64,000 nucleotides of DNA from an uncultured archaeon (GTDB lineage Archaea > Asgardarchaeota > Heimdallarchaeia > Heimdallarchaeales > Heimdallarchaeaceae). Below are positions 26,540 through 55,560 of the stretch, piece after piece. Location: NCBI GenBank assembly GCA_964534625.1, contig CAZHRF010000006.1:35298-99297 (forward strand), in the 5' to 3' direction. Position 1 is the first letter of the stretch. Each line of letters starts with the position of its first letter. Under the pieces are notes generated by a model that saw only the letters and a program-made list of their open reading frames with translations, searched no databases and was not told the DNA's origin. Made by a program: the position numbers and the translations under genes.

Positions 26540-27682
26540 ATGATCAGGTTCTTTTTCAACAACAAAAAAAGGACATATCAATCTATATTGACTTTATCCT
26601 TAGGTTTAGTAATCTATCTCGCCACAACTATGCTCATTACAGGATATTCTAGTCATATAAGTGGTATGGCTGCAACCATCCAACCCTCACAATATGTACT
26701 GATTACTGAAAAAGGCAAATCTCTTTCTGATAGTCGACTCTCTTTAGATATGCTCATTTTTTTAGAGGAATATGCAGAAGAAAAACCTAATATCCAGCTT
26801 GTTTTTCCTCAAATATATTTTCCTGTCGTTGTTAGGGGGGAAACAGGCATTGTCAAAGCATCTCATTTACGATTGTTGAATTTCACTTTATTTGAACAAG
26901 TTCGAAACACAGAGTATGAATACGACTTTACTGCACCCAATGAAGGAGAGATAATTGTTGGAAAACTACTATTCAATCAAATTTCCACAGGTGTAGGAGG
27001 GAGACTTACGCTGATTAACGACGATTTAAACCTAAATGGGAATCTTTCTGTTCTTAATATAGTAACGACACAAGTTGAGCACGATATTGAAATACTTGCC
27101 CCCATAGACTTATTCAATTTGCTTTCATTTGATTATTATTCCTTAATTGAACTTAAAGTCAAAGATAATAGAGAGATACCAGCAATAAAGAGTCATATTT
27201 CAAACCATTTTTCTAATGTTTCTATAGAAGATAAAAAACAAACACAAAATTTCATTAAATATGGAACAAGAGAGGTTGTAGAAACAATTACACTCTTGCA
27301 ATCATTATTTTTTGTTTTAATGTTAGTTTCTATCACATATAGCATTTACACGCTAGTCAAAGAAAGTGAACGGGAAATATTCATTCTTCGTTCTATTGGT
27401 GCAACAACTCGTTATATAATAGCATTATTTGTTGTACAATCGTTGATGATCGGTATAATCGCTGCCCTTATCTCGATTACAATTGGGTATCTTCTTATTA
27501 CTGCTATTGTTGCTATCGTTGCTGCAACGACTGCTTTACCTTATATTTCTCTAAGCTTTGGATTTGATTTAATTGGTACAATATTCTTTTTTTCACTTAT
27601 TGTCTCTACACTTTCTGGTATTTACCCTTCATTCTTAGCTGCCAAAATTAAAATCGTCAAGGAGGATCTCTCATGGATTTAA
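26540..27682 (+). CDS. FtsX/MacB-family (type VII ABC) permease
   Basis: 1 TM, extracytoplasmic domain, then 3 TM; EREIFILRSIGA and SGIYPSFLAAK. ATG at 26540 preferred over GTG at 26510. Confidence 0.85.
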   Translation: MIRFFFNNKKRTYQSILTLSLGLVIYLATTMLITGYSSHISGMAATIQPSQYVLITEKGKSLSDSRLSLDMLIFLEEYAEEKPNIQLVFPQIYFPVVVRGETGIVKASHLRLLNFTLFEQVRNTEYEYDFTAPNEGEIIVGKLLFNQISTGVGGRLTLINDDLNLNGNLSVLNIVTTQVEHDIEILAPIDLFNLLSFDYYSLIELKVKDNREIPAIKSHISNHFSNVSIEDKKQTQNFIKYGTREVVETITLLQSLFFVLMLVSITYSIYTLVKESEREIFILRSIGATTRYIIALFVVQSLMIGIIAALISITIGYLLITAIVAIVAATTALPYISLSFGFDLIGTIFFFSLIVSTLSGIYPSFLAAKIKIVKEDLSWI

Positions 27683-30600
27683 CAAAGATATTCCTCTATA
27701 ATGTTTTACCTAAAAAAAGGATATTTATAGCCTTCATTGGTTTTTTAATTAGTTCCGTCATTATTACTGGAACCTCCATTTTACTTTCTAGTATGATAGT
27801 ATCCTCACAAAGTTATTTTGGTGTTACCGATGATGTAATAGTTATTTCTAATCCAGAGGCCAATACTCCTTTTACAAGTATATTACCTTTAGATCTCATT
27901 TCTGCTATTCAATATGTACCTGGTGTAAAGGTTGTCAGTCCTGAGATTATGACAGCAGCCGTATATAATGATCAAGCAATTTATTATCGGGGAATTGACC
28001 CAATTACCTTCTGGAACTTCACAGATGTTGAGTACATTAAAGGGACCCCTATCACTCTTGATGATACATATAATGTCAGCGTGGGTGAACGTTTTGCCCA
28101 AAGGAACAATATTGATGTAGGTGACTTTTTTACTATTTATTCAACTCGGGCAGATTCTGCACTCGAGTTAAGGGTAAAATCTATCTTTAAAACGGCTACT
28201 TTATTAGACGATGAGATCATTGGTCCATTGTGGATCGGTCAGTTCTTATCGTTTGGGAATTTTGATTACATCTCACATATTCGCGTTAAAGTCGATTTAG
28301 ATATAATAAGGAACAAAGAAAAAATTGCTGAAATGGTTAACAGCAAATTTACATTACGAGTAGACTTATCAACTTCAAATAAAACCACAGCCTACAATGC
28401 AACCCTATATATCAAAACATTTAAGGATACTACTATATTGGAACGAAAGTTCATTAATAATAGAACCATTCAACAGATTTTGCCTTTTAGGATGTACAAT
28501 TTACAAGTAGAGATGAATGAACTAGTCTCAAACACTACAACAATATTAGTCGCAAAAAACGATACAAGGGTTGATCTATTTCTACCTCGTATTGAAAGAA
28601 AAATAGACTTTAATATCACCACCGACGAAGGGACGCCAATTGAGGGGGCAAAATTAGATATAACACCGATTATGGATAATGTTGAGCGGGAAAATCAGAA
28701 ATCTGTTTTATACACTAATAAACAGGGTCTTTCATCACAAATACTTGTTGACGGGACTTATAGACTTGAAGCTTTTTACAATAATTACTATATAGAACAG
28801 ATATTGGAGATTACAAAATCAAAAACAATAAATATTATATTAATATATAGACAGCCTGAAATATATTTTTATACTCCCACTAATGAGAGTACAATTCTAA
28901 ACAACGCTTTTAATCTTAAATTAGATTCCTCGCCTGGATGTTCAATCTATTATTATTTTGATTATAACAGTTCGCAGACTAAAACGTATTTTGTTTGGGA
29001 ACCAGGAGTTCAAAAACCAAATTACATCCCAACTGAACTAGAGTATGGCAATCATTCACTTACGGTAATAGCTTTAAATGAAGACTTTGATGGGAATGAG
29101 AGCAAAAATTATGCAAATAAAACTATTCATTTTTTCCTCAACAGTTCACTATCTGATTCTATTGAGCCCTCTTTACTTAAAAATGGCACACAAATCTATC
29201 CAAATCAAAAAATTGCTTTATCCGAAACACTTGCTTCAATAACAGGATTACAATACCAATGGAATCAACTGGGTTTTAAGGATATAGAAAGAGATTTCAT
29301 TATAACACCAAATAACACTGGTATTCATTTATTAACATTACGAACAAAAGCTGGAAAAATAATCGAAGAGTATTATTATATTATCACCTCCAATCCTGAT
29401 CCTCATGGCATTATTGGTGAAGTCAATTATCAACCAGTTAAAACAGGGGATAAAATAGATTTCTGGTGTTCAACACCTAATCAAACATTATATTATTCAT
29501 GGAATAACAACACAGCGTTATTCTTAGAAGAAGATTATATCCCTACTGATAGTTTGGGAGAAGGTTTAAACAGATTATATTTATATCAAATGACAAATGA
29601 ATCTTGGTACAACTCTTCGTATGAAATATGGATCGACAATACAAGTCCAGAGATAACATTAGATTACGATAATTATTCTAATATATCGAGTGGGGAATAT
29701 CTTGCCTTGCAAACAAATGAAGATATTTCTGGAGCCTATTTCTCTTGGGATGGACTACCATACTCTAAAATATTTTCTAACTTCATCCCTGTTCCCTTGA
29801 TTAATGGAACAAGAAATTTAACTCTCAAAGTTATTGACCTTGCTGGAAATATAAATATCACTTCATTCACTTATACAATAGTAAACTCCAGCACAACTTT
29901 TACAAGCGATATTTTCTTACAAAATGAATACTTTGGGAATTTGACTCTGCAATATATCACCATAAAAACCATAAGTTCTTTTAATTTTGACAATGCAAGT
30001 TTCAATTTGAATGGGCCTATTAGTAAAAGCGGTTATTATAATGAAAATATGAGAATATATCTCTATGAAGGTAATTATACCCTCAATCTTACTTTCCATG
30101 ATAACAATCTAACTTATTCTCGACAATGGACTTTTACCATTTGTAAAAGTTATAACCACTCTAATATCGATCCTACGCTATTTCAATTAAACAATACCAT
30201 CAGTAGTTATTATTTTCCCGATTTTAATTGGCGAGTTAATGTAAATGATACTGAAACGATTTTCTTAGTAGATTCAAAGTACCAGCTTCAACTAAATTAT
30301 ACAACTAGCGACAATACATGGATTGAAAATAAAAAGATAATTATAGATACCACTCTACCTATTATCACAATTTTGTCACCTAATAAAGGTATAAATGACA
30401 CTTCATTCTTCTTTGAAATAAACTCCAATGCTGTTGAAATTAATTATTCTATTGAAGGGAGCGGAATAAGCGGAATATATAACCCATATAACAACTCAGA
30501 AATAACTTTAGAAAAAGGAATCTACACAATACGTTTTTCACTCTATGACTCAGCTCATAACTATCGGACATACAATTACATCCTACGCACAGGGTTATCT

Positions 30601-31842
30601 TACAAATACATGAATTTAACCTTTATTCATTTAGATGTTGATGCAAGTCCCTTGCAAAATGTTTCTATTTCCATCACAAACCCCTACAATTCCTCTAAGA
30701 CCAATCTATACACTAACGAAAATGGCAGTATACTGTTTTACACATTTGAAGGAGGTATAACGGTTAGACTAACATATGATGGAATTGAGTATAGTTTTAG
30801 TTTAGACACAGAAGATAGTTATAATCAAACCATTTATACAGGTAATGCTCATGCATATTTTACCATATTAGATCAATTCACAGGTGAACCTATAGTGAAT
30901 GATCGTTTCATAGTAACCGATAAAAATGATATTGTTATTACTTCTTTTACTACAAATAGTGAAGGAAAAGCCACTTGTAAGATCTACTTTGGTGACTTCA
31001 CTTTATATTACAAGAGGGGAAACGATTATTATTCTTTTGATATAAGTATTAGTAATCCTGAACAAAATTTCACTATGGAATTATCCTCGCCCAAGCATTT
31101 TCTAACACTTTATTTTAAGTATACTAATGGAAAAGACGTAGAGAATATTCTAGTTGAAGTTTCAACTAAATTTGATAGGGTCATCAAACTTCAAACTGGA
31201 ACGCAATCTAGAGTCCAAGCTCTTTTGTCATATGAAATTGTCAATATAACAGTATATCGAACAAGTGGAAAAATAGAACAATTTCAAAGAATATTTACTC
31301 CTTACCGTGTAGAACACACCATTTATTTTTACAGTAATAAAACAACTGGAATTGATCTTTTACCTGAGGCTAGTTTCATAGGGGAATTTAACATTCTCTT
31401 GTCAGTAGCTGATGAATATATGGACCAATATTTCCGTGGTGCTTTAATGCTCACATATACCATTGCTTATGCAGAAATTGGATTAGTAGTAATAATTGTT
31501 GCAGTTAATATGTACTCAATATTAAGAAATGTTTTCAAGGAAAGCAAAAAAGAAACAAAAATATTAAAGATGATAGGAGGAACAACACTTCATACCTTCT
31601 TTAGTATAATTACTCGATTAGCATTGCTTTCCATTTTTGCTTCAATAATAGGATACATCATAGGATATAGTATGATTTCCTTCTTGGCAAGGAATAACAG
31701 AACATTATTTTTTGGACATGTGTTTTATCCAGAAGGAAACTGGCAAATATTGATTTTAAATGCTGCATTTATGCTTATATCAGCTTTTATATCATCTCTT
31801 GTTATCTCCAGAAAAGAGAATGACAAAAGTATTTCAATCTAA
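27673..31842 (+). CDS. FtsX/MacB-family permease with ~1000 aa inserted Ig/prealbumin-like ectodomain
   Basis: N-terminal TM and MacB-like core (YRGIDP, VGERFA..VGD), DxTxPxI Ig junctions, many N-x-S/T sequons, ETKILKMIGG and 3 C-terminal TMs. Confidence 0.8.
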   Translation: MDLTKIFLYNVLPKKRIFIAFIGFLISSVIITGTSILLSSMIVSSQSYFGVTDDVIVISNPEANTPFTSILPLDLISAIQYVPGVKVVSPEIMTAAVYNDQAIYYRGIDPITFWNFTDVEYIKGTPITLDDTYNVSVGERFAQRNNIDVGDFFTIYSTRADSALELRVKSIFKTATLLDDEIIGPLWIGQFLSFGNFDYISHIRVKVDLDIIRNKEKIAEMVNSKFTLRVDLSTSNKTTAYNATLYIKTFKDTTILERKFINNRTIQQILPFRMYNLQVEMNELVSNTTTILVAKNDTRVDLFLPRIERKIDFNITTDEGTPIEGAKLDITPIMDNVERENQKSVLYTNKQGLSSQILVDGTYRLEAFYNNYYIEQILEITKSKTINIILIYRQPEIYFYTPTNESTILNNAFNLKLDSSPGCSIYYYFDYNSSQTKTYFVWEPGVQKPNYIPTELEYGNHSLTVIALNEDFDGNESKNYANKTIHFFLNSSLSDSIEPSLLKNGTQIYPNQKIALSETLASITGLQYQWNQLGFKDIERDFIITPNNTGIHLLTLRTKAGKIIEEYYYIITSNPDPHGIIGEVNYQPVKTGDKIDFWCSTPNQTLYYSWNNNTALFLEEDYIPTDSLGEGLNRLYLYQMTNESWYNSSYEIWIDNTSPEITLDYDNYSNISSGEYLALQTNEDISGAYFSWDGLPYSKIFSNFIPVPLINGTRNLTLKVIDLAGNINITSFTYTIVNSSTTFTSDIFLQNEYFGNLTLQYITIKTISSFNFDNASFNLNGPISKSGYYNENMRIYLYEGNYTLNLTFHDNNLTYSRQWTFTICKSYNHSNIDPTLFQLNNTISSYYFPDFNWRVNVNDTETIFLVDSKYQLQLNYTTSDNTWIENKKIIIDTTLPIITILSPNKGINDTSFFFEINSNAVEINYSIEGSGISGIYNPYNNSEITLEKGIYTIRFSLYDSAHNYRTYNYILRTGLSYKYMNLTFIHLDVDASPLQNVSISITNPYNSSKTNLYTNENGSILFYTFEGGITVRLTYDGIEYSFSLDTEDSYNQTIYTGNAHAYFTILDQFTGEPIVNDRFIVTDKNDIVITSFTTNSEGKATCKIYFGDFTLYYKRGNDYYSFDISISNPEQNFTMELSSPKHFLTLYFKYTNGKDVENILVEVSTKFDRVIKLQTGTQSRVQALLSYEIVNITVYRTSGKIEQFQRIFTPYRVEHTIYFYSNKTTGIDLLPEASFIGEFNILLSVADEYMDQYFRGALMLTYTIAYAEIGLVVIIVAVNMYSILRNVFKESKKETKILKMIGGTTLHTFFSIITRLALLSIFASIIGYIIGYSMISFLARNNRTLFFGHVFYPEGNWQILILNAAFMLISAFISSLVISRKENDKSISI

Positions 31843-35092: not shown

Positions 35093-36631
35093 TTATGACC
35101 AGAGAAAACTAAACTCATTATAAATATCGCGAGATTTTTTAAAACGTTTCTTTAGTTCCCTTTCTACGTCTAGTCTATCTTTGAGATGAAGATAAATTTT
35201 AAGATAATTGTTGTTTCGTAAATTTATGCCTTTTAGATCTTTACATTTGTATAGATCGTCTTTAGAAATAAAGGTAATAAAATTATTCCCTAGTCCTAGA
35301 TGCGATAAGTTAGTACATTTCCATACGTCTTTGGGAAAAACACTAAATAAATTATTTTTTATATATAAATGTGTTATAGTATCATTTTCTTCTAGACCTT
35401 GGAGGTCGTGTAAATGATTCCCATCAAGATTAATTTTTTTTAATTTTGGAAAGTCGTGTAGTTTTTTGGGAAAAGAAGTAAAAAAATTCCCTCTGAGATC
35501 TAATTCAGTAAGGTTAGGCCATTTTTCAGGGTTTAGTGGTAATTGAGTTAAATGCATCTTTGGTAACCGTACACCTACAAAATCAGCATACCAATTTACG
35601 TCGAATACCGTATTTTCCGTATAATAATATATATCATGTTCGTTTAACCATCCACCCAACTTTCCTAGTTCGTCTTTTTTTTCAGTGGTCAATTTAAATT
35701 CTACGTTGGGATGATAATTGTTATACCCAAAGAAACGACTAGCCCACGTATCATAATAATTTACATCGGTCGGGAGATAAAGATATTTTGTGTCTTCATG
35801 TTTAGACAGCAGTGTATGGGTTTGACTATATACTTTCCCATATTCTTTAATCAGTACAAATATGACAGATCCCTCTTTTTTATTATTCTCATTGGTGTCT
35901 TTATGGAATACGATATTCTTTAATTTATTTATGTCATGATTATAAATGTTCACTCCATATAACCTCGTATCCATCAGATTTAAAATCAAATCTACGGTAT
36001 CATAGGTGCCAAATTTGCATAAATCCACCTGCAACGAATAGTTACAAAATAGTTCATTTTCCCATGTTTCCCTTGCATCTTGAAATTCAAATACACGATT
36101 GTCTTTATCTAACGGAATAAGTTCAATATTCTTATCCGTTGTCTTTAAAATTTCTGTATAAAGTGCATCAATAGGCGGGTTATCAATACTCTCATAGCTA
36201 TCGGAATGAGAAATATAAAAATCAAAGAACCTTTTCATGAGCCCCACATAAAAAAGCACATTATTAGTTCTTGAAAATATACTCGACCACTCTCGGTGGG
36301 AATCAATATAGTTCTTAACACACTCAATTATTTTTTCTTTACATAGCCGTACATCCGTTATTAATGAATCTTTGGGAAAGGTAAACAATAACCCGTATTT
36401 ACTGGTCAAGGTAAATTTGTTTCCTGCGAGAAGCATATCCTCTATCTTATTGTCACACATGTAATGAATATCTATCTTATACTGGTCAAACAGTTCTTTA
36501 AGTGTATAGCGTATGTATCCTTTAAACATGTACAAGAACGTTTTACAATAATAGTGTAAGGGGATAAAAAATTCATATGTATCGTTTTTCTTATTCTTCC
36601 TAATCACTGCGTCTTTTCTTATCCAACTCAT
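35093..36631 (-). CDS. protein with unknown N-terminal region and ~5 C-terminal leucine-rich repeats
   Basis: LxxLxLxxN repeats: LTELDLRGN, LKKINLDGN, ITHLYIKNN, LSHLGLGNN, LKGINLRNN. GGTGA RBS; no signal peptide. Confidence 0.85.
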   Translation of the reverse strand: MSWIRKDAVIRKNKKNDTYEFFIPLHYYCKTFLYMFKGYIRYTLKELFDQYKIDIHYMCDNKIEDMLLAGNKFTLTSKYGLLFTFPKDSLITDVRLCKEKIIECVKNYIDSHREWSSIFSRTNNVLFYVGLMKRFFDFYISHSDSYESIDNPPIDALYTEILKTTDKNIELIPLDKDNRVFEFQDARETWENELFCNYSLQVDLCKFGTYDTVDLILNLMDTRLYGVNIYNHDINKLKNIVFHKDTNENNKKEGSVIFVLIKEYGKVYSQTHTLLSKHEDTKYLYLPTDVNYYDTWASRFFGYNNYHPNVEFKLTTEKKDELGKLGGWLNEHDIYYYTENTVFDVNWYADFVGVRLPKMHLTQLPLNPEKWPNLTELDLRGNFFTSFPKKLHDFPKLKKINLDGNHLHDLQGLEENDTITHLYIKNNLFSVFPKDVWKCTNLSHLGLGNNFITFISKDDLYKCKDLKGINLRNNNYLKIYLHLKDRLDVERELKKRFKKSRDIYNEFSFLWS

Positions 36632-36927: not shown

Positions 36928-39900
36928 CTACGAGTCTCGTCTAGTTCTATACCACGCTTCAAAATTAATATACTGCCATGCTCGTTCTAACTCTAATGGA
37001 TAAATGTCCCATGCAGATTTATTCTTCTTATTACGTTTGGCTAGATCATTCACAAGATTTCTTAACCTTTGAGCATTATTCCCTATATTAAATCTCCCAT
37101 GACTACTTCCTATTTCCATTACCGACTGCCACATCATACAAATATGATAACTAGATTGGAATTGCAATAACGCTTTATCATCTAGATTAGCAGCTTGTTC
37201 TAAAGCTATAGACGCTTTAATATATCCATATAGATATATTCCCACTTGTTGTCTTATGGAAAGGGGATTCTCTTCTTCTCTTCTAGTATATCTCATATAT
37301 TCTGGAAGGAAAAGTGAATCTTCTAAACAATCTTGTATACCTCGTAATATCTCTTTCTGATCATCGTCTAAAGATGGATGGTCAGTGATGTATTCGTCAA
37401 TATGACTCGCTTCTAATACCCCTGTTCCTTTTAATTTCTTCTCATCTATCTGCTTTTTAACCCACAAGTTTACATCATCAAATACTTGCCTATATTCTTT
37501 ATACTTAAGATCGGCTTCTACCTTTTTATCGGTTCTTAATACCCAAGAATACGCTGGTTGTTTATATATTTGAAATCTTTCATTATCTTCTGCTACAGGT
37601 ATATACCTTCCATAATCAGTATATTTCTCATATACTCCCATAAGAAAACTGGTTACAACTATCTTCTGAATAGTTGCTTCAATATTAGTTGTGATTGTCC
37701 CCCCGTGATCTCTCTTTTGTAATAAAGATAAGTCAAACCTCCCCTTGTTTTGCTCTGTCATTGTTTCCATGTTTTCTATAATTTGTTCCCATGTTAAACC
37801 GTCTACTTTCTTTTTCGCTTGGTGATAGTTTAACAAGTTGTCTGGATCTTTTCCCATTTCATATTTTATCAATATCTCATATAACGCGGGTTCATGTTCT
37901 AATATATTTTTAGGCACTGCAACCAAATCATTATATTCCCTGATGATATCTTCTCTCGACTTACCTTGAGTAGAACCACAATATCTTTCTACAAAATTTG
38001 TTTCTATTTCATTATTTAAATTAGTAGTAGCATAAGAATTCTTATTTTCACCTGCTAAAGTATCGCTTCCCCCTACCACCCGTTTTAACAATGTAAACCC
38101 ATTTTTAGTCACTGCTAAATAAATCTGGTCATTGCGTGTGCTTGTCGTTATAGGTAAATAAGGGTTATATTTACTTTTTCCATCTATCTCTCGTCCATTT
38201 ACATCTATCCCCATATCCACCTTTTTGAGGTAAGTCACACCTAGGGCATTTTCTTCTCCATTACTCCTTACAATTGCTTGGTGTATCGCATCTGCTATTT
38301 GTTTATTTTCTGGACTCTCTTTATACCATATTTCAAAATCTGTTTTACCTTTTTTCACTTTCTCGTGATATGTTTTAACTTTCTGTAAGTCATCGGGATA
38401 AGTAAGGTCTAATTTAAATGTTGTATCTCCAACTTTGTCTCCAGCTATTACTAGTTTATTAGACCATCCATTTTTTCCCTTTTTAATATTTCTAACTCCT
38501 TCTTCCGCTGTTGCAATAACTTGTGATAGTTCAGTTACCCATATTTTTGTCGTATCTATTGTCCATTTTTGGTTTGGGCACTCTACTTCTATAAAGAATT
38601 TATCTTTCGCGTCGTAAGATGCTCTTAACCCTATTATGTTACCATATCTAGTGCCATCTTGGTCACCACCCTTCTTATCCTTTCCATATACATATCTCGC
38701 CAACTGTTCTATTAATATTTTCCCTGTATGTTGTGCTTCTACTAATAAACGAGAGTTAAGAGGTGATTCGGAAATTACTATATCTTCAAGAGAAGATAAT
38801 TTCTTACCTGAACTATCTTTTCCATATGTATCTATATCAAATAATTTTTTTGCTTCTGTATCTATTCCTTTTCCTTCCAATTCAGGATAATACCTTTTTA
38901 ACCCACAATCCATGTGTACCGTATCTATCCCCCCCATTAGTGCTCTATACTCATGTGAATCTCTGTCTATTGAAGCCCATTCATTTATATGTATCTTCCC
39001 GTTCATTAATCTTCTATACCTATCATATTTCCATGCATATTTGTTATGGTCTGTCTTTTCTATTTTAATATCTCTACCCGACCTAGTATCTGTCTCAGTT
39101 AATAAATATGCATTTACATACCCTACTCCATACGCATAATTTTCATCTGTAGTTTCTAATTTTGCAGTATTTAATATATCCAAAGGATATGTATGTTCAT
39201 ACCCGTTAGTCACTTTAACATTTTCACCTTGTAGTAATATCTGTTGTAATCTATATGATAAAAACAAGTCCATACTTGTCGGTAATGTATCGCCTTTTGC
39301 CATTGCATATATAGCCAAACCATTATTTCTAAAATCATTTATACTTGTATATTCGCTTTTCGTAAATTCATTGTTAATCGCTCCCCCTAAATTTTTGTAT
39401 GTATCAGCTTGTATAATAGTTCCATCCGCCTTAAAAACATAGTAATACTTATTATCTTTATGGTAAAAAATAGCTGGAGATAGTTTATAATCTTCTCCGT
39501 TTATTCTTACATTAAAAACATTATCTCCAGTAGAATATTGAGATAAATATATTTTACTCCCGTCAACTTCTGTTACTGTTATAGGTTCACCGTTGTTAGG
39601 TAATTTTACTCCATCAAAAATTTCTGTATATGCTGTATATTTTATAGAACTGTCATCTGCTTTCAAATATACACCAGCTAGCGATTTTGTCCTATCTGTT
39701 ATGGACAAAAACAGATCTGTCCCTGTTTTATCTTTTAATGTTACTAACCCATCACTATCTGTTTTTAAAGCCACCTCTCCTTGAAACATGGCTTTGATAT
39801 TGCTTACCATCATTTTCTTTCTAAATAATGTTAGTAAATTAATATTAATACATCTACTCTTTAGTTCAAGTGTATGGGCTTCCAAAGCATCTTTAAACGT

Positions 39901-42900
39901 CTCTGCTGTAAACGTTTCTCCTTCTGGTGGAAATATATTCCATTGTTTTTGAAAAGTTTCAATGACATTTCTAACATTTATTACTCCTCCTCCAGGTGTC
40001 TCATAAGTAGGTACATACCCGTTTTGATGCTGGTCTATACTATCTCCCGTATACTCTTTTATAATACCTAAATCCTTTAAAACTTTCTTTGTTACCTCAT
40101 CATCAGTATTACTATCTATATATATAATATTCCCATCTTTTTCTTTGGGTTTATATAAACTTTTAGCGTAATTTTTCATTTCCACTTCTATTGCAACTTC
40201 TTCTGTTTCATATCGTATCGTTCCGTCGTCATTTTTTATTTCCCTAATTTTTTCTCCTATCACTACTGCATCTGCACCTGTTACTGATTCTTTTATATCA
40301 GATTTGAATAGACTAGAGATAGCTAAATGAAGATCCGATTGAAAGTTATCATCCTTCCACGCATAATTCTTCTCCATATCATACGCCAATTTTACATCTA
40401 CTAGTTCTCCTGTTGTAGGATCTATTTCTAATTTTAACCATTCCGAAGTCGTAAGTACTATATATCCTCTGGTTTTAAATTGGTCTTTTATTTGTATTTC
40501 CATCCTTTCTAAATATTTCTTTTTTAACGTAGGATTATTTATTATCTCCATAGCTTTAATAAAAGACAATACTTTTTGTTTTATTTCAGCATAATCATTA
40601 CCCAAAATTTTTTTCAAATGTTTAGTTTGTAAAAGTTTTAGTGACCAATTTCGCACTAAATCTTTTATCACATCATCTTTAGTTTGGAAATTACCACCAT
40701 TTTCATTGGCTATATCTCTAAGAACTTCCCAATAGTTATTCTTTTTATTTTCTAGTTTTACTCCCTCGTCGGTCAAAAATGCTTTAAACTCTTTTACTGT
40801 TTCTTCATCTAACCATTTATTGTTTTCTATATCCTCTACAATGTTGAAAACTTTGTTAACAATCTTTGAGGCTTGTTTAGTCTCTTCCCAGTTTACTGAC
40901 CATTGAATCTTTACTAAAAGATATTCTATCAACTGGTGCGTATATAACTCACTTATCACTTTTTTAAACAAACTGTCATCTTCTACCTTAACATTCGTAA
41001 ATTTCTGTGTTCCATCGTTGTTGTGACCTATTGCAATACGTATTTGGTTAGTTGACTCACTTTTCTCTATCCAATGTATTGTACTTATGGCAGGTACTTT
41101 TCCTTTATTGTCTATATTCTGCAGTAATGCTTCACACCAACCTTGAAGTTTCATATAGTTTTGATCAATCAACCACCTAGTATTGTAGGGATCTTTATAC
41201 CCTGAATTTTCTTCCCCATTACCAAATGTCTTTTTTATCGCTTGTATTTCATAATCCTTTATCTTTGGATTTTCTTCCACTAAAGCTCTAAACTCTTCTT
41301 CAGTGATCATTAACCCTTTATATGGTTCATTAAATTGATTATATGCTTTTGCCCATGACTGTTTATTTATCTTAGCCATTAGTGCATCATGTCTTGGACC
41401 ATAATGATCCTGATCTTTCCACACTTCATCGAACTCATCACCAAAGTCATTACCTAATGTTTCTAGCTTTAATCCGATGTTATCATTACCATTTAAAGAT
41501 AAAGATAAAGACGAAGATGAAGATGTAACTTCTCCCTCAGATACACCATAATAACCTAGATTACCCAAAATACTTCCTGCAGGTCCCCAATCATACATAT
41601 CTTCAAACATTTGTTGTATCCAAAAATTACTAGCAAACGATTGAGCATACTGGTAAAAACCATTACCATATGTTTTTTGCATTAATAGTGCAGCCTTTCT
41701 TCCACTTATACCGCTCGTCATTAAAAACAATTGTAGCCCCATAGAAACCAAGTGATGTCTCAATCCTACTACCGTACCCAATGTTGTAGTATATACTGTT
41801 TGTGGCCAAAATATTCCCCATTGAATAAAAGCATTTACCAAGTTAGCTGAAAAAGCAAAATAAGTACCAAAACTCATTTCAAACCCCAGTCTATGTTGGT
41901 TAAATTTGAATGCTTGTTTATGAAAATCTATTTGTGCCAATTCTGCTTCAATTTGTTTGTTAAACAATTCATCCATAAATGAGGAACGGTCAGGATCTTT
42001 AATTGTATCTTTATCAACTTGTTCTTTCAGATATTTTCTCAAATGGTCATAATATCCCTCATTATCTAGTTGTCGTTGAACCATATCCCCTGCATCATGT
42101 GAAGGATCATTCATATTAGATACTATAGCTATCAAATCCATAGGTATTTGTGATATAGCCAAATGTCTAAAGAACGTATCAGGATCAAATAACGCATCTC
42201 TAACATCTTGATAAAGAGCATAGGTATCAAATCGTGCCATAAAGCTTTCCATTATAGACATGAACCTTGACTCTCTTATCCCTAACCCTATATTTAATAA
42301 AGGTAAGACCATATTGTCAGAAAACCCATAGTAAAATTCCCAATGCCATCCATCATCTTCATCAGGTCCATTAAACACTCTATAAATAACTATATCAGCT
42401 AACTGGTTAAATTCACTTGGATTAGGTCTATCATCTGGATGTCCTACTCCTTCTTTTTTAGATGACGGAACATATACTGTTGAAACATTTGCCCCTATAG
42501 TTTCACTTATTGCAACTTTAAATCCAACCTGTCGCAACTTCTCGGCTATATATTTTACTTTAAGGTCATTATTCCACAATTCATCTTGAACATAATCTAG
42601 TTGTTTTTCTGTTCTTACAAGCCCCCACAAAAATCGCATAAAATTATTTTCATTACCTACAGAACCTTGAGGACCTACTTTACTTTCAATCTGATGGTCC
42701 AAAAAGTTCAAATGTAACAATTGGTTAGTATTTGATTGTACATGGGGTACTTCATTGATATTAACAGTACCAGAACACCCTCCAATAATGTTAATCCAAT
42801 ATAACATAAAGAATAATCTACTTAAATAATAGGTGATTTTGGTGTTAAAGCGACCGTAACCAAAACCAATATTATTTGAAAATTCTTGAAATAGGTGCAT

Positions 42901-45900
42901 TACCTCATTCCATTCATAATCACCTTTAAGAAAACCAATAACAGCACGCACAAGAGACATAAAATCTTGATAAAAACCTATTGCACTTTCTTTTATTCTT
43001 TCAAAGGCAGAGGTGAAAAATCTTTCTACTTTAGCGAAGATAACTTTTGCTTTATGTAATACATTATTCCATACATTAGTAATATATTTACCAGGATCAC
43101 TAAAGAAAAGTTCGATTTCATATTGAATAGTTTTAAATGATCCTTCGATAGTAGCCCCTATAAAATTAGGTAATCCAAGACAATCTAATATAATCATGCC
43201 TATCAAAAGTATACCCGCAACTTTAAAAGCCATTTTTAATAACCCCATGGCGAACATGGGAATAGCAAGTCCTCCAGTTAGACCAATAAATATAAGTGCT
43301 CCAGTAAAAACCACTATTGACACTACTATTGTATATGCGAGCATGTGGTCTTTCCAGTTCGCTTTCCAAGTATCATATAATTGTCCAGACTGGACAACGT
43401 TATAAAATTGTTTAATTGGACACCACACGTTATACTTTATATCGCTTACAAACGATTGCCACATTGACTTCGCAGCTTGAATAAATGCCCCTTCCCAATC
43501 ATAATTCATAACATATTCTTCTAGGGTTGCTCTTGCACTCATACGTGTAGAGATATCTAATGTTCTTGTATCCCCGCGTATTTGGTTATAAGTAAATGTT
43601 TTTAACAAATTGGATGTAGATAAAGTATATATTCCGTCTTTTTTATTGTTTATTTCTACTTGTAAAGAGTCAAGAGTATATTTTATATTGTAATCACCCA
43701 ACACAGTAACTTGATCAAATAATAAATTAATTGAAATAGTTTTGTCATTGAGATAAATCTTAAATTGTGTTGCATTAAACTTTTCCAATTCTTCGCGTGT
43801 TATATCAATATGTTCTATGTGTCCTGTATGATAATGTTCACCTAAAACATTCCAATATTCGATATCTATCACGTTATACAAAGTTAAAGATGAACCAACA
43901 TCAGTTAATTGCAAGTCAAAATTATTTCCTTTTACTTGTAATACATTATTGATATCAAGATTGTTGTTTACAACAGAAGAAGAAACATGCAAATAACTCT
44001 GGGTATCTAATGTTGCAGAGTGTGTATTGTGTAAACGCAAATTAGAAGCAGAAAGTTTGTTGGTGTTAGTTGTCGAACAAGGTACTAATTGTTGCACTTC
44101 AATTTTTTGTATTTGTAAATCATGGTATTCATGAGCTGTAAATTGATCATAAATATATGCAATGACAGCATACCCAATCATATCTGTTGGATCCCAATCT
44201 GCTATTCCTATCCATACTACTTTAACTGTATGAAATGCGGTACCATCAAAATAATAATAAGACATTAAATATTTCTTACTTGAATAACTTCTTCTAGCAA
44301 CATCCACAGTTTCCATTCGAGGAACATTTACCCCCCCACGATACTCATCAAGATTCAGATATATCCTTCTCTCTTCCCATTTTTCTAGAATATCTATATG
44401 ATAATCAGTAGGACCAGTAATGGGTTGTATAAATTCATTCATACCTTCAATAGACACAGTAAAGTTTTGGGTATAATTATTAACACCATCGAGGATAAAT
44501 GCAAATGTATGAAAACCACTGTTATGCCACTTTGTAACCTTATCTCCTTTATATGTGTCATTCAAGATATATTGCTTCATATCGAACTTGAATTTACCAT
44601 TTTCATCTGAAAGCAATAATTCATTATTAAATGTTGTACAGTTATGGTCTGTAGGTTGGCGGATAAGAAAACCATCCACATATATAGCTAAAATATGCGA
44701 TAGGTCAATATTACTATGTAAAGTATATTCAAGGTCATTAACCATATCTGTACCATGATATAATGTCGTAGAAACAAAAAGTTGAGTGTTGTTTCCATAA
44801 TGATCTCTCTTATACGTTCCTAACAGGCCTATTTTACCAAACTCAGTTAAAGTCGACGTCCTCAGTTCCATGTGTCCGTCAGTAATATTATTCGTTATTA
44901 TATCGCCATTAATAGGTGTACTTTTTTCTAATAGTTCAGTTAAGAAATAAGACATTGAGTTATTGTTGTAGATAGGGATATAATCAAGGGTATTGTTTAC
45001 CTCTTCTGGTCTAAAATATTCTCCCGTTTTATCTATATATGTCCCAGGATTTGATACCAACCATTCAGAAATAACCGTATGATTATTTTCGTCTAGATGT
45101 GTAGGTAAAGCATTTAACGGTAAATCAAATGAATGATCTAAAACAATTTGTATCTTGAAATATGGTTGATGTATTTGACTAATAGAACTATTTAAACCAT
45201 TATTATGTAGTCGGAATATAAAACTATGATATCCCCCTACAAGTCTTATTGGGATGTTTGTTGAATACACTTCATACTCTGTTGCACATTCATAATCAAA
45301 TCTATGAACAATAGGCGTGCTGGTCATAAAGGGTATGTTTGTTTCAATTACAAGCGAACCTATACTTTCTACATATGTTTTTACATTAAAAGCCAGATTA
45401 AAGGAAAATGTATCTTCAAAAGATAAATCAAGTTGATCGTTTAAATGAATAGTACCCAAATCATTTCCAGGCAATCTGGTCCAAATACTTTCTGAACCCA
45501 TTAAAATACTAGGTAAATTCTCACTTGGATTAATAGAGGGTACATCAATATAAAAATTAATGTCTTTTATATCTGTTAAAGAAGAACCACTAGTGATGGT
45601 AAATTTATAGTCATTTATACCATCATTAAAGTTTCCAACAGAAGCTAAAGTATACAAATTAACTAACGCATCTTCTGGATCTGTATAGTTAAAAATATTT
45701 GACGTATCAGTCTGTCCCATTTCTGCGTCATTTATATATTTAAGTAACCCTGCATAATTAAGGGCATAATAATGCCATGCTGAATCGTCCTTTATACGAT
45801 CATAATATTTTATTTCGTTATATGTTTCAAACCCAGTAGTAACCATATCTTGTGAGTTAACACCTATGGAATCTAAATAACTATCACCTAATATGATTTT

Positions 45901-54900: not shown

Positions 54901-55560
54901 CGTTGCTTCAATATACCCTAATTCACTTTGCATATTTCTAGCACTTATATAATATTCGGGATCAAACATCTCACTATCAGCTAGAAAATCTTTATGATGA
55001 TAATCAGGAGTATATAAGGTGATAACCTTAATTTTACAATCATAGGTATTTTCATCTTTATCTATAATTCTAATAGTAATAAATGATGTATCTTTGAAAA
55101 TATAATAATCTATCCTTGCTCCACGTATAGAATGAAAGTTATCTTTTTTATATAGAACTTTTGTGCTATTCGAATCATAAATAACTAACGAATCAATTTT
55201 ATCAGAAGCAGCAGTAGGTGTTTCTATAGTCAATAATAAAGGACTATTTCCACTCCACGTACCTATGAATACCGTTTTTTCTGCAAAATTATCATCGGGA
55301 ATACGTAAATAATTGTACCAAATATCTAGTCCATTACCTGACCAACCCAAAGTAGAATTATTAAAATGCGTATCCTTTACGAAATAATAGCCATTATCGA
55401 ATGTGGTTGGATGTTGTATATAAACCGCCGATACGTCAGCTATTAACATAAAAACAAGTATTAAAATTGTAATTGATACTTTTAACACGTTATTTTTTTC
55501 AAGTTTCTTATTAGTTTGATGTATTAATTGTGTTGTTTTATTTTTTATTTTCTTTATCAT
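36928..55560 (-). CDS. giant 6210 aa secreted/membrane protein: lectin-like ectodomain, hydrophobic helical region, C-terminal PD-(D/E)xK-like domains
   Basis: 18.6 kb uninterrupted ORF; signal-like N-terminus (VSITILILVFMLIADVSA); AGGTGA RBS; TAATG overlap with the upstream gene. Confidence 0.9.
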   Translation of the reverse strand: MIKKIKNKTTQLIHQTNKKLEKNNVLKVSITILILVFMLIADVSAVYIQHPTTFDNGYYFVKDTHFNNSTLGWSGNGLDIWYNYLRIPDDNFAEKTVFIGTWSGNSPLLLTIETPTAASDKIDSLVIYDSNSTKVLYKKDNFHSIRGARIDYYIFKDTSFITIRIIDKDENTYDCKIKVITLYTPDYHHKDFLADSEMFDPEYYISARNMQSELGYIEATELGHNARFFPVNGIESGKRSYHFYMQLPSSTRLSLSYMFLSLVNNEETGYHIGIDLYSADDPYLYHSLVSKYEYLDGVPTFDDVNLDRWAGQYVHIDIRISWFNNTNQVDTGLVMNYLYIDSERDEYRYTPGEIINAEEFSKSIYKTGIATVERVYGNGQDIGIINERVLRLDTNVDGGYVSYLIENTIPIYESPSFGTDLYTDWTYDSNYTYIIDGKLRLNATHTTGFSQSCLTHLTLEDSYKVNFDFSLKEVGETTPSIFSLLFNYDNVSDVGYALQFVYNPDSDDIVRIVKHLGYGSFNTISEKVMEIETDKEYSVELTFDKNGTTVHISNEVHLGAFTSAYEPQLIGFMIENIIADVSSLSILTREPFAANRLHLRAMNTGPKDVTVAFYIDEIEDKGIARQLLAKMVLEKGKGLVRINCPINPNLLRFNSILSFEVLTPFSWDLYFDELGFSGATPFGQSRQAWDYYRKGNKAYINNNMLVYAGDENSGYEDAYDYTDSTNEIFYPHLVENDDNSLHSTGEVWTQEYSSTIVTDIFTSSTIGDSISILNDNGNYLVDIDQNQNLTHSTAILEKLTAIAGDIKLYINLEYISAISAEDDVQIRLCNNANSPFIIVGRKGNRYYLIVDGYEYGVADTESNLGNYELIKTNDTVIFSVDNVIIFNTTIHSPSIYQGISAIQVRIKSTDNFDLKFTDSALYTREGYTTLRHRLFEETFDTDLDNWNLSSNGDDIASTEHGFLTTLFEPVTDSNMLDFVSETGTGYHGIYLTHNQAYADCLVINTELHLMSTWNLNDDTHTIDNTAIGIQKISFGTNEQTLSLILHDLSETDHTVTLDIIIDGINIHTKTFSTWYIEQDTHLFFTIKKDSSKWDIIYTDNQNTESISYTSTENFEINTISISQETYLDHSYANFYVDNIYVDEYYWAGSAYSTSESSLEYKLQENIYESYLESNWIAMFDGCSSSDIGFINDREGLLIEPLTTLSSTATVSLTRSVTTDYDFTLDLLLSIKGVERTGDFYLSLNNMYNYLHIQFDGQNMYIEMVTDVGTDSIVIDKSSLLFNTLRIVKEGTTIIIYTDINIQNQLSPLLQTETSTYTISSIELVTLLQPTTPIEVNLKHIAVKDSSANEYGNPWDEGHLIINEHFSEISNWDISGYNYYNLNYNLVNTTQLSTNFTREYKENEWYGNIYSHLYMFQRDFVFDLLIDYLLDGTYGKMSFVLEDHLQYPNFMELCFSSTTPTSIDMGLYIQGVLHEEITFYENIDAYVFRIHRDKDTIHVSTNYGDQEQLSTLFSFTSDIEHIYIDRIKIKQLSLGKNENTHSMRVDAMYINAYSTPISNPAPFEIINSFVAPDYSTMFNTIEDFTTYTYGLTHTNDVPYDISDGLQTQFLFGDYSNKERGRTYWKEMVLIDNFLLNALINTTVNYNSQGSTYIEFLDNCYDTVFKLEFTTKNNTFIINLYAYDVLVSSYVDDTTNEIEQWVRFGRYDNELKLGLYRGDYYVPLQSSLSADGTITKSMVSNIFAVKITQTGIYTQDIYPNTFRLKEITLGSEATYDETTLVERESPEEENFIASYDMYLQNETRFSITATTNYYIGDNTTERLTFNIYLLEIDSIFDMNNAIYVGSIIFLDTDFDVHTHSLVIIGYEGLYEVVIMIDRRVPVQLHTLRATDIGSSSEAEQDYEYMSDGIGWADTFDNYSSTNYWAENVFTTEKMFTITSFSSSTFNYYPYTEGFDVNFNFNILRVSYNDSIGSPGIIVINHQPINVANYPFLALEIMTDELCKDSRIQLIINEELYDITPFTDRKKGFVTIHKNLYEILYPNIDQAIGQLAIQVNSSVSFTIRNIEVYKILNYEYNHIEEANEDSYADVGYSTNNNLVITFLIGHGISTERMTTEWDIYTYFKSTFKDVSINYFYANDEAFPTWYENTIENSDKRHMLVIFDQIPDYLVEYYYWYDNYGRPFEKIKLEEWYDKGHYLLWAGSQPFKYKVESGGSTITTIPTEIVNKYFGRVIDTNYIPNDINLNISSRGNDVGLQQYNPEWMVNASDLYGFGGLSTYYNATGVIYNKTEHGDLIDTEPLWFDYAWYGDYIGAKYGFLQALDTELLLRVFYYYFVDHLSVNNVFGNLLLNGPISLQKTFTSSKNYQIIQTHTSEYITVGINNQHTFNFTLLEQFSLVEHGINTVNSYSLDIYNDTLVSLYSIKLININGYSQKEHYVFDEPHSPDFNHNFVVTHGKFNEKNEYDMLAPAFYNGTNSAAYLDSNSFGEYVLEVEMSHKQYHYQENGRELAGIVIDIPSIDSENGIVESLFIGFKTVEDMNASYPTSLFVAKFTGSFDTYTVLYENKFINLGNSITHKLGDLEWEAQNYNIQPMKLYIKKSITDTNLVKYDIFAKAYRVFQLSAFTDEQERQVISDGEYRCKTEWFADTTSITLDSNHNGYVGIYGNHSNYYYNSLSIYPITSGYAGDYLNINDGIGSLSVGGTWINGEVSTNWQKMEDVNYLITLSNILQNVGLQAGLYLDENLNYNWEDDPDDWDHYIEIGLVNEHGHEVSIIWENDGFKLYGGLTDYMILTHERAKSDQLYKVGMRIDDSTGDVTFTIYGANDINTTLASHTFKGGLLEPGFRSWNEQVKLFVRTTNTMAYIDEVRNGKFVAQPLTYSSGRGLVGAGEISYWLKGQSEYSLELRNNSMSNVYLMGNYTEKLGVFTTTFALNGSTTMNILSSYFDDILFNISIIDNALYVNATNLNYILSSNKGYKLTYYFNSTFVNLTLNDITRFEELKSWEFNDYHPNIFVGYEYTININTTKGSVYFNNIAINTLNSLFTKKDKDTWVFTSNPLFSNYLYRKTSYLQLVMNPIFGTTNITVLGNGKEIAHKVVKYEPFATNHPVIIMLQGFNTHGLHRYTLIFSNVIEFDRIALGYSQPVVKYLYTQPTNASAKMSDSKYNIAIQDFNGNFVLEDFTIEQATSNIEFAYRLPVGQYIEIALPLKATFYDDYLIDSKEMYLKIILGDSYLDSIGVNSQDMVTTGFETYNEIKYYDRIKDDSAWHYYALNYAGLLKYINDAEMGQTDTSNIFNYTDPEDALVNLYTLASVGNFNDGINDYKFTITSGSSLTDIKDINFYIDVPSINPSENLPSILMGSESIWTRLPGNDLGTIHLNDQLDLSFEDTFSFNLAFNVKTYVESIGSLVIETNIPFMTSTPIVHRFDYECATEYEVYSTNIPIRLVGGYHSFIFRLHNNGLNSSISQIHQPYFKIQIVLDHSFDLPLNALPTHLDENNHTVISEWLVSNPGTYIDKTGEYFRPEEVNNTLDYIPIYNNNSMSYFLTELLEKSTPINGDIITNNITDGHMELRTSTLTEFGKIGLLGTYKRDHYGNNTQLFVSTTLYHGTDMVNDLEYTLHSNIDLSHILAIYVDGFLIRQPTDHNCTTFNNELLLSDENGKFKFDMKQYILNDTYKGDKVTKWHNSGFHTFAFILDGVNNYTQNFTVSIEGMNEFIQPITGPTDYHIDILEKWEERRIYLNLDEYRGGVNVPRMETVDVARRSYSSKKYLMSYYYFDGTAFHTVKVVWIGIADWDPTDMIGYAVIAYIYDQFTAHEYHDLQIQKIEVQQLVPCSTTNTNKLSASNLRLHNTHSATLDTQSYLHVSSSVVNNNLDINNVLQVKGNNFDLQLTDVGSSLTLYNVIDIEYWNVLGEHYHTGHIEHIDITREELEKFNATQFKIYLNDKTISINLLFDQVTVLGDYNIKYTLDSLQVEINNKKDGIYTLSTSNLLKTFTYNQIRGDTRTLDISTRMSARATLEEYVMNYDWEGAFIQAAKSMWQSFVSDIKYNVWCPIKQFYNVVQSGQLYDTWKANWKDHMLAYTIVVSIVVFTGALIFIGLTGGLAIPMFAMGLLKMAFKVAGILLIGMIILDCLGLPNFIGATIEGSFKTIQYEIELFFSDPGKYITNVWNNVLHKAKVIFAKVERFFTSAFERIKESAIGFYQDFMSLVRAVIGFLKGDYEWNEVMHLFQEFSNNIGFGYGRFNTKITYYLSRLFFMLYWINIIGGCSGTVNINEVPHVQSNTNQLLHLNFLDHQIESKVGPQGSVGNENNFMRFLWGLVRTEKQLDYVQDELWNNDLKVKYIAEKLRQVGFKVAISETIGANVSTVYVPSSKKEGVGHPDDRPNPSEFNQLADIVIYRVFNGPDEDDGWHWEFYYGFSDNMVLPLLNIGLGIRESRFMSIMESFMARFDTYALYQDVRDALFDPDTFFRHLAISQIPMDLIAIVSNMNDPSHDAGDMVQRQLDNEGYYDHLRKYLKEQVDKDTIKDPDRSSFMDELFNKQIEAELAQIDFHKQAFKFNQHRLGFEMSFGTYFAFSANLVNAFIQWGIFWPQTVYTTTLGTVVGLRHHLVSMGLQLFLMTSGISGRKAALLMQKTYGNGFYQYAQSFASNFWIQQMFEDMYDWGPAGSILGNLGYYGVSEGEVTSSSSSLSLSLNGNDNIGLKLETLGNDFGDEFDEVWKDQDHYGPRHDALMAKINKQSWAKAYNQFNEPYKGLMITEEEFRALVEENPKIKDYEIQAIKKTFGNGEENSGYKDPYNTRWLIDQNYMKLQGWCEALLQNIDNKGKVPAISTIHWIEKSESTNQIRIAIGHNNDGTQKFTNVKVEDDSLFKKVISELYTHQLIEYLLVKIQWSVNWEETKQASKIVNKVFNIVEDIENNKWLDEETVKEFKAFLTDEGVKLENKKNNYWEVLRDIANENGGNFQTKDDVIKDLVRNWSLKLLQTKHLKKILGNDYAEIKQKVLSFIKAMEIINNPTLKKKYLERMEIQIKDQFKTRGYIVLTTSEWLKLEIDPTTGELVDVKLAYDMEKNYAWKDDNFQSDLHLAISSLFKSDIKESVTGADAVVIGEKIREIKNDDGTIRYETEEVAIEVEMKNYAKSLYKPKEKDGNIIYIDSNTDDEVTKKVLKDLGIIKEYTGDSIDQHQNGYVPTYETPGGGVINVRNVIETFQKQWNIFPPEGETFTAETFKDALEAHTLELKSRCININLLTLFRKKMMVSNIKAMFQGEVALKTDSDGLVTLKDKTGTDLFLSITDRTKSLAGVYLKADDSSIKYTAYTEIFDGVKLPNNGEPITVTEVDGSKIYLSQYSTGDNVFNVRINGEDYKLSPAIFYHKDNKYYYVFKADGTIIQADTYKNLGGAINNEFTKSEYTSINDFRNNGLAIYAMAKGDTLPTSMDLFLSYRLQQILLQGENVKVTNGYEHTYPLDILNTAKLETTDENYAYGVGYVNAYLLTETDTRSGRDIKIEKTDHNKYAWKYDRYRRLMNGKIHINEWASIDRDSHEYRALMGGIDTVHMDCGLKRYYPELEGKGIDTEAKKLFDIDTYGKDSSGKKLSSLEDIVISESPLNSRLLVEAQHTGKILIEQLARYVYGKDKKGGDQDGTRYGNIIGLRASYDAKDKFFIEVECPNQKWTIDTTKIWVTELSQVIATAEEGVRNIKKGKNGWSNKLVIAGDKVGDTTFKLDLTYPDDLQKVKTYHEKVKKGKTDFEIWYKESPENKQIADAIHQAIVRSNGEENALGVTYLKKVDMGIDVNGREIDGKSKYNPYLPITTSTRNDQIYLAVTKNGFTLLKRVVGGSDTLAGENKNSYATTNLNNEIETNFVERYCGSTQGKSREDIIREYNDLVAVPKNILEHEPALYEILIKYEMGKDPDNLLNYHQAKKKVDGLTWEQIIENMETMTEQNKGRFDLSLLQKRDHGGTITTNIEATIQKIVVTSFLMGVYEKYTDYGRYIPVAEDNERFQIYKQPAYSWVLRTDKKVEADLKYKEYRQVFDDVNLWVKKQIDEKKLKGTGVLEASHIDEYITDHPSLDDDQKEILRGIQDCLEDSLFLPEYMRYTRREEENPLSIRQQVGIYLYGYIKASIALEQAANLDDKALLQFQSSYHICMMWQSVMEIGSSHGRFNIGNNAQRLRNLVNDLAKRNKKNKSAWDIYPLELERAWQYINFEAWYRTRRDS
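41495..41524. repeat. hexamer tandem repeat (RAAGAY)x5 encoding a Ser/Leu linker
   Basis: aaagat aaagat aaagac gaagat gaagat, encoding part of TSSSSSLSLSL on the minus strand. Confidence 0.7.

Follow-up and report, generated by a model that had tools for sequence, protein, structure and literature searches.

Giant protein genes at the locus

We analyzed a 64-kb stretch of contig CAZHRF010000006.1 (positions 35,298 to 99,297; here called the window) from an uncultured archaeon of the family Heimdallarchaeaceae (assembly GCA_964534625.1). The window is AT-rich, with a GC content of 31.6%, and carries an open reading frame (ORF), P0001, for a giant protein of 6210 amino acids (aa) (Table 1). This giant is built of an N-terminal signal anchor (aa 22 to 51), a beta-rich ectodomain of ~4000 aa, a hydrophobic block, and a Lys/Glu-rich tail of ~2070 aa. 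Our main subject is a conserved unit within the tail, in which D5097, E5127, and K5129 make up a D ... E-x-K (D/ExK) motif; judging from sequence conservation, these residues are a genuine functional site, and the conserved unit around them is the core of an end piece that can be exchanged. The hydrophobic block would form either two or three membrane helices, so that the tail may lie inside or outside the cell.

An upstream twin giant gene runs into the 6210-aa gene, its stop codon overlapping the start codon of the latter. No Pfam domain was found in the twin (window 55560 to 63920, minus strand), which shares 32 to 33% identity with the ~3200-aa giants that come first in the loci of two related genomes (G002 and G006). 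The 6210-aa giant matches the ~6000-aa giants of these genomes at 44% and 35% identity over aa 26 to 4676. Gene order in the G002 and G006 loci is a ParA-like ATPase, a subtilase, the ~3200-aa giant, and the ~6000-aa giant, with tRNA genes further downstream (in the homologous loci, tRNA-His lies 1.8 kb and tRNA-Arg ~11 kb downstream of the giants). Because of the tandem layout and the homology to these giants, we take the 6210-aa gene to be the larger member of a tandem pair of giants of the aloposon type, an assignment made from layout and published description. According to Wu et al. (2022, PMC8813620), aloposons of "Candidatus Heimdallarchaeum" comprise tandem genes for proteins of 3000 to 6000 aa, Otus and Ephialtes, to which the paper gives no function, together with a downstream tRNA and several upstream genes, one of them for a MinD/ParA-like ATPase. 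The present pair (at least 2812 and 6210 aa) resembles Otus and Ephialtes in its tandem, overlapping arrangement, which recurs in G002 and G006, and the loci of those two genomes share the ParA/MinD-like ATPase and the downstream tRNA and also carry the subtilase. It differs in that neither a tRNA nor an Rfam family was found downstream of the giant in the 64-kb window, while the upstream arm lies beyond the contig end.

Table 1. Coordinates of the giant genes, the conserved unit and its motifs, and neighboring features (nucleotide positions refer to the window unless another sequence is named)
Feature	Residues (aa)	Nucleotides	Strand	Basis or remark
Giant ORF P0001	1-6210	36928-55560	minus	ORF listing and homology
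Upstream twin giant gene	at least 2812	55560-63998	minus	Runs off contig end
Hydrophobic block	4071-4138	43147-43350	minus	Two or three membrane helices
Helix-GF motif KVKYIAEKLRQVGF	4334-4347	42520-42561	minus	Within a negative-control slice
Ser-rich linker and boundary zone	4679-4715	41416-41526	minus	Near-identity of congeneric giants ends here
Exchangeable C-terminal cassette, ~1500 aa	~4700-6210	36931-41463	minus	Jumps in identity, dS, and dN; P0002; sequons
Part of cassette used for sequon counts	4985-6210	36931-40608	minus
Conserved unit	4985-5420	39301-40608	minus	Alignment and AlphaFold2 model
Motif region, helix/strand motif to E-x-K motif	5020-5131	40168-40503	minus
MEIQIKDQFKTRGYIVL	5020-5036	40453-40503	minus
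Supposed insertion	5038-5092	40285-40449	minus	Conserved SPWL.L.ID..G.VTDV strands, disordered loop, helix
GADAVV	5095-5100	40261-40278	minus
D5097 codon	5097	40270-40272	minus	Invariant; directly before unit strand 114-125
Long acidic beta-hairpin, 12+12 residues	5098-5126	40183-40269	minus	Strands 114-125 and 131-142 of unit
AIEVEMKNY	5123-5131	40168-40194	minus
E5127-M-K5129 codons	5127-5129	40174-40182	minus	E and K invariant; directly after unit strand 131-142
Supposed module 2	~5540-5565	38865-38945	minus
Supposed module 3	~5765-5815	38110-38270	minus
Leucine-rich repeat (LRR) protein gene		35093-36631	minus	Directly downstream of giant
Second LRR gene		L021:584-1612 (contig C41)	plus	Directly downstream of P0002
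MacB/FtsX-type protein gene	1-1389	27673-31842	plus	Sequon-rich

A conserved D/ExK site in the tail

The initial annotation of the window had proposed a PD-(D/E)xK nuclease-like module at positions 40160 to 40510, defined by the helix/strand motif MEIQIKDQFKTRGYIVL, GADAVV, and AIEVEMKNY. All three motifs lie where they had been placed, on the minus strand. Conservation was judged from an alignment of 10 homologous sequences with 23 to 42% identity, only about 10 homologues being known. Eight columns are invariant within the first 232 positions of the unit (E4992, G5051, F5085, G5095, D5097, E5127, K5129, and Q5204), and three of these eight are the D, E, and K of the motif, so chance does not explain its conservation. 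The same three residues remain invariant in an alignment of eight whole cassettes. There the unit is the sole strongly conserved part, holding 21 of 29 invariant residues, among them E4992, D5097, E5127, K5129, Q5204, K5248, E5262, D5268, and N5347. Two further nuclease-like modules (2 and 3) had been proposed downstream in the same tail; neither is conserved in the eight-cassette alignment, the "ExKG" of module 2 falls within an insertion unique to the 6210-aa protein, and both look like chance matches.

An AlphaFold2 model of the unit (436 residues, 10 sequences) had a predicted local distance difference test score (pLDDT) of 79.7 and a predicted template modeling score (pTM) of 0.78. In its N-terminal part, a pair of long helices leads into three short strands, after which come a disordered loop that includes a helix and a hairpin of 12+12 residues; a helix and a strand stand ahead of this hairpin, and a strand and a helix come after it. 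The hairpin arms are variable in sequence, and the base carries the invariant D and ExK. According to the DSSP assignment of the model (unit numbering), D113 (D5097) directly precedes one arm and E143/K145 (E5127/K5129) directly follow the other. By this register, D5097 and E5127/K5129 should lie opposite each other at the hairpin base, as in a PD-(D/E)xK site. In a second fold of aa 4985 to 5216 alone, the same elements recurred, with a pLDDT of 60.9 and confidence lost past residue 146. The segment that would supply beta4 and its helix in a PD-(D/E)xK core thus depends on the C-terminal half of the unit.

Homologues of the unit are few. HMMER searches of 1.84 billion representative proteins found five proteins, and six-frame searches of 83 genomes from the class were positive for 6, the matches within the phylum amounting in practice to one family. 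A phylum-wide genome search yielded nothing usable beyond the class-level matches, and further searches by three routes returned only the 6210-aa protein itself, the paralogue P0002, and a fragment of a G006-type giant. One homologue fragment carries the NCBI name "Promethearchaeota archaeon." Every match is either a giant ORF or a stand-alone protein of 1200 to 1500 aa, and the homologous stretch begins at ~aa 4985 and ends at ~aa 5420. A metagenomic homologue of 2438 aa (P0005) has a signal anchor, a small ectodomain, and ~6 hydrophobic segments at aa 276 to 821, followed by a tail with the unit at aa 1249 to 1557. Given this shorter architecture, the unit is joined to membrane proteins of differing build.

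An exchangeable, sequon-poor cassette

The giants of two congeneric genomes were compared along their length. Both giant pairs are 88 to 100% identical up to ~aa 4600 to 4700 and 51 to 83% identical beyond that point. At the ~aa 4700 boundary, synonymous divergence (dS) rises three- to fourfold (0.1 to 0.2 before, 0.46 to 0.65 after), nonsynonymous divergence (dN) rises about 10-fold (0.01 to 0.03 before, 0.14 to 0.31 after), and dN/dS goes from ~0.1 to 0.3 to 0.48. These joint jumps imply a separate, deeper history for the last ~1500 aa and point to recombination and to weaker or diversifying constraint; taken together, the sequence comparison indicates a recombining cassette. Its candidate recombination boundary is the zone around a Ser-rich linker (aa 4679 to 4689), which comes after a conserved W-M-Y-D-L...G motif. 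D5097, E5127, and K5129 are fixed despite the fast divergence of the cassette. A stand-alone paralogue of 1203 aa, P0002, lies on contig C41 of the same genome and aligns with the whole of aa 4984 to 6208 at 33% identity. Neither a signal peptide nor a membrane segment was found in P0002 or in a second stand-alone homologue, P0004, and the P0002 locus has no upstream stub homologous to the conserved region of the giant.

The cassettes are also poor in N-x-S/T sequons. The cassette of the 6210-aa giant has one (8.5 ± 2.7 expected) and P0002 has none (8.7 expected), while four other cassettes have zero to two each, against 7 to 11.6 expected; sequon-poor cassettes other than those of P0001 and P0002 come from G002, G003, and G006. 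In comparison, sequon counts are at expectation in the ectodomain of the giant (53 observed, 54 expected) and in the cytoplasmic ORFs of the window, and sequons are not depleted in the stand-alone homologues P0004 and L005 (G014). The near-absence of sequons is an argument for a tail that meets the glycosylation machinery, and it suggests that the cassette is exposed to N-glycosylation yet must remain unglycosylated. Among the neighbors, the upstream twin giant is likewise depleted (19 sequons versus 38.8 ± 5.2 expected). A MacB/FtsX-type protein of 1389 aa contrasts with the cassette in being sequon-rich (48 versus 20.9 ± 4.2), as expected for a heavily glycosylated ectodomain.

In both cassette copies of this genome, the next gene, on the same strand, codes for an LRR protein, and ~17 LRR frames occur in the 3.4-Mb genome. 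The two cassette-adjacent LRR proteins are alike at the repeat level only. Elsewhere, the gene after the giant codes for a Ras-family GTPase (G002) or an ABC ATPase (G006); the LRR partner was seen in this genome only.

A possible Mrr-type nuclease center

Our leading specific reading, a tentative one, is that the D/ExK site is a strongly derived, metal-dependent nuclease center of the Mrr-type PD-(D/E)xK kind. Helix 26 to 46 and strand 49 to 53 of the unit would then be alpha1 and beta1 of the PD-(D/E)xK core, and a 58-aa family-specific subdomain would come after beta1. The D strand and the ExK strand would form an elongated beta2/beta3 hairpin, and "N-I-I-Y-I" with the helix "DEVTKKVLKDLG" would supply beta4 and the following alpha helix. 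On this assignment, the D/ExK site would provide the activity of a C-terminal cassette that resembles an effector or toxin, and the adjacent LRR protein may serve as partner or inhibitor of the cassette. The data show that the motif exists and is invariant, how it sits on the predicted hairpin, how the cassette behaves, and that LRR genes lie next to it; the fold, metal binding, nuclease activity, substrate, delivery to another cell, and LRR role are all things that we infer here.

The unit shares with Mrr-type nucleases the linear order of helix, G-aromatic strand, G-x-D strand, (E/Q)-x-K-x-Y strand, and hydrophobic strand plus helix, as well as, in the predicted model, the placement of D and ExK on two arms of one hairpin. 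Profile comparison gave a further likeness. Target alignments for hhalign were built from these genomes (30 sequences for Hjc, 40 for Mrr_cat); a first, smaller Mrr alignment was powerless, as the Hjc-Mrr positive control itself failed. Against the 40-sequence Mrr_cat alignment, Hjc scored 15.6 to 15.9 (P = 0.055 to 0.077) with the catalytic register correct, and the unmodified N-terminal half of the unit scored equally well (16.7; P = 0.06), its residues 154 to 179 falling on beta4 and the "FT..A" helix of Mrr. The reversed N-terminal half scored 9.4, the C-terminal half (negative control) 9.7, and block shuffles of the N-terminal half 12.3 ± 1.6 on average, with none of 80 reaching 16.7. When the insertion and the hairpin tip were removed, 78 columns aligned colinearly with ExK on QxK (P = 0.02; 4 of 80 shuffles reached the score). 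No signal was obtained against the Hjc alignment. A search of the ESM Atlas had Tox-REase-7 as the sole named neighbor (a weak 0.84), a lead that was not reproduced when a named-only repeat of the search returned nothing.

Several results weigh against a nuclease of this kind. Real-protein negative controls, consisting of 24 slices from other parts of the giants, included one that reached 17.1 against Mrr_cat. Since one control in 24 attains the score of the unit, the Mrr_cat signal is not significant; it is compatible with a remote Mrr-like relationship. The match in that slice is a 14-residue helix-GF motif, KVKYIAEKLRQVGF, which fits the "E-helix + G-aromatic" element that forms alpha1 in the Mrr_cat profile and has no D/ExK after it, implying that the alpha1 part of the motif easily arises by chance. 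The bare D/ExK pattern is no commoner than chance in the 2080-aa tail, with 6 matches to a strict D-h...h-[DE]-h-K pattern versus 2.8 ± 2.2 in shuffles and 51 to a loose pattern versus 49. In scans of the tail and of a 301-aa segment, Pfam, NCBIfam, and PADLOC gave only subthreshold noise (DUF5906, FAS1_thioest_ins, and DUF3850); phmmer and two profile searches of PDB sequences gave nothing relevant; and hmmscan of eight family members at E ≤ 1 found no nuclease family (Mrr_cat PF04471, Hjc PF01870, or Tox-REase). With the same Pfam library, 45 of 83 genomes readily gave Hjc matches, 46 of 400 gave Mrr_cat matches, and an Mrr_cat_2 gene was detected inside the aloposon arm of G006. Foldseek and VIA-align lists for the two models contained no restriction endonuclease fold, a result that falls short of a negative, with the power of these searches lowered by the large insertion and the long hairpin. 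The sole recurring rows were HU/IHF-like, at a root mean square deviation of 8 to 10 Å, and an HU/IHF-like DNA-binding reading was rejected on the grounds that the hairpin is acidic.

The details of the motif region add to these objections. The statement in the initial annotation that all catalytic positions appear present stands for D5097, E5127, and K5129 in all 10 homologues; it fails for the helix Glu (E5021), a position with E in 4 of 10 sequences and otherwise T, Q, or N. The GY-x-V element, which had been offered as a hallmark, is poorly conserved across the same alignment. What had been described as an insertion after the first strand (58 aa) contains two strands that rank among the best conserved in the family and is thus part of the fold proper. 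Compared with Mrr-type nucleases, the unit therefore has a conserved 58-aa subdomain between beta1 and beta2. It also has 12-residue hairpin arms with a D-to-E spacing of 30 residues, has almost no helix between ExK and beta4, and is fused to a conserved half of ~200 aa that is required for folding.

Alternative readings of the unit

The unit might instead be an enzyme or ligand-binding domain of a fold unrelated to restriction endonucleases, handling phosphate or nucleotides. D5097, E5127, and K5129 would then form one wall of a composite site that is completed by the Gly-rich "PGGG..N.RN.IETFQK" loop and helix (Q5204) and, from the second half of the unit, by K5248, E5262, and D5268. This fits the spread of nine invariant polar residues across both halves of the unit, and conservation in the family peaks at the P-G-G loop ahead of helix 210 to 222, rather than at ExK. 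The pTM of 0.78 points to halves that pack as one body, residues 146 to 232 need the C-terminal half to fold, and no known fold was found among the Foldseek and VIA-align matches listed. However, there is no positive evidence for a particular activity, the Foldseek rows for a kinase and Pol-beta stand at a probability of <0.16 and a template modeling score of ~0.1, and the simplest reading of a D ... ExK placed at the base of a hairpin is PD-(D/E)xK. On balance, a composite site of this sort is doubtful when taken by itself and about equally likely as the Mrr-type nuclease.

A rather improbable alternative is that the unit is a noncatalytic scaffold or a surface that binds, for instance, the LRR partner or another part of the giant, with D, E, and K as salt bridges that clamp the hairpin base and a merely coincidental likeness to a nuclease motif. 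The bare motif occurs at chance frequency, as the nonconserved modules 2 and 3 illustrate, and there is no homology to any enzyme family; both points would fit a scaffold, and D113 stands opposite K145 in the modeled hairpin, where a salt bridge is plausible. Yet the three charged residues are invariant at 23% identity, a dN/dS of 0.3 to 0.5, and a 10-fold rise in dN, which is more typical of catalytic or ligand-binding positions than of salt bridges at a surface. Because these residues do not vary although the cassette evolves fast, a purely structural role seems somewhat less likely than either a nuclease or a composite site.

Comparison with toxin and surface-protein systems

Polymorphic toxin systems (CdiA-CT/CdiI and Rhs) combine a conserved N-terminal part with a divergent C-terminal end, orphan cassettes, and a small partner gene. 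Compared with their general description, the giant is alike in its long conserved N-terminal part, sharp boundary, and divergent C-terminal end with raised dS and dN/dS, in the stand-alone "orphan" copy P0002, and in the partner gene directly downstream of both copies. In contrast to the unrelated toxin folds of those systems, the cassette here is one homologous family throughout and measures 1200 to 1500 aa. Further differences are that the LRR partner was seen in this genome only, that the orphan P0002 lacks an upstream homology stub, and that no secretion or delivery machinery was identified for the giants. It is conceivable, but in our judgment unlikely, that aloposon giants are archaeal contact-dependent polymorphic toxins, in which a surface stalk of ~4600 aa would present an exchangeable, glycosylation-avoiding effector of ~1500 aa whose D/ExK nuclease would be neutralized by a cognate LRR protein.

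A nuclease that acts within the producing cell, on incoming or element DNA, would be closer to SPEARE of Nanohaloarchaeota, a giant membrane protein with an adhesin-like ectodomain and a cytoplasmic tail, proposed to be a restriction-type nuclease, that has type III restriction-enzyme domains and is its most conserved part (Hamm et al. 2019, PMC6642349). Compared by description only, the 6210-aa giant resembles SPEARE as a huge archaeal membrane protein with a membrane segment near the C terminus followed by a tail and with an associated serine protease, here the subtilase gene just upstream of the twin giants in the homologous loci; the stand-alone P0002 and P0004, which lack signal peptide and membrane segment, would also suit an intracellular role. 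We nevertheless regard such a role, as opposed to that of a delivered toxin, as very improbable: neither type III restriction domains nor helicase domains turned up in the Pfam scan, conservation is lowest in the tail, which also recombines, and a domain that stays wholly in the cytoplasm would hardly be expected to lack sequons almost entirely, given that cytoplasmic ORFs in the window have the expected numbers.

As far as the text consulted goes, Wu et al. (2022, PMC8813620) do not describe an exchangeable tail, a D/ExK site, an avoidance of sequons, or an LRR partner. Aloposon giants were published in 2022 without a function, and a catalytic-looking site in a recombining, glycosylation-avoiding, and partner-linked end piece makes the question experimentally tractable. 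If the Mrr-type reading holds and the unit is a nuclease, it would offer a first handle on cell-to-cell antagonism or on mobile-element DNA processing in the lineage of archaea nearest to eukaryotes; otherwise, it would be a conserved domain without a recognizable fold and worth solving. New here are the table of invariant positions, the hairpin register, the Mrr comparison calibrated with negative controls, the jump in dS and dN, and the second cassette-LRR pair.

Upstream arm of a homologous locus

The upstream arm of the G006 locus carries a genuine Mrr_cat_2 restriction endonuclease gene (L022:6569-7462, plus strand; E = 7.7e-6). The same arm also holds genes for a DUF4145 protein, for the ParA-like ATPase, and for a protein that matches linker histone weakly, all upstream of the subtilase and the twin giants.

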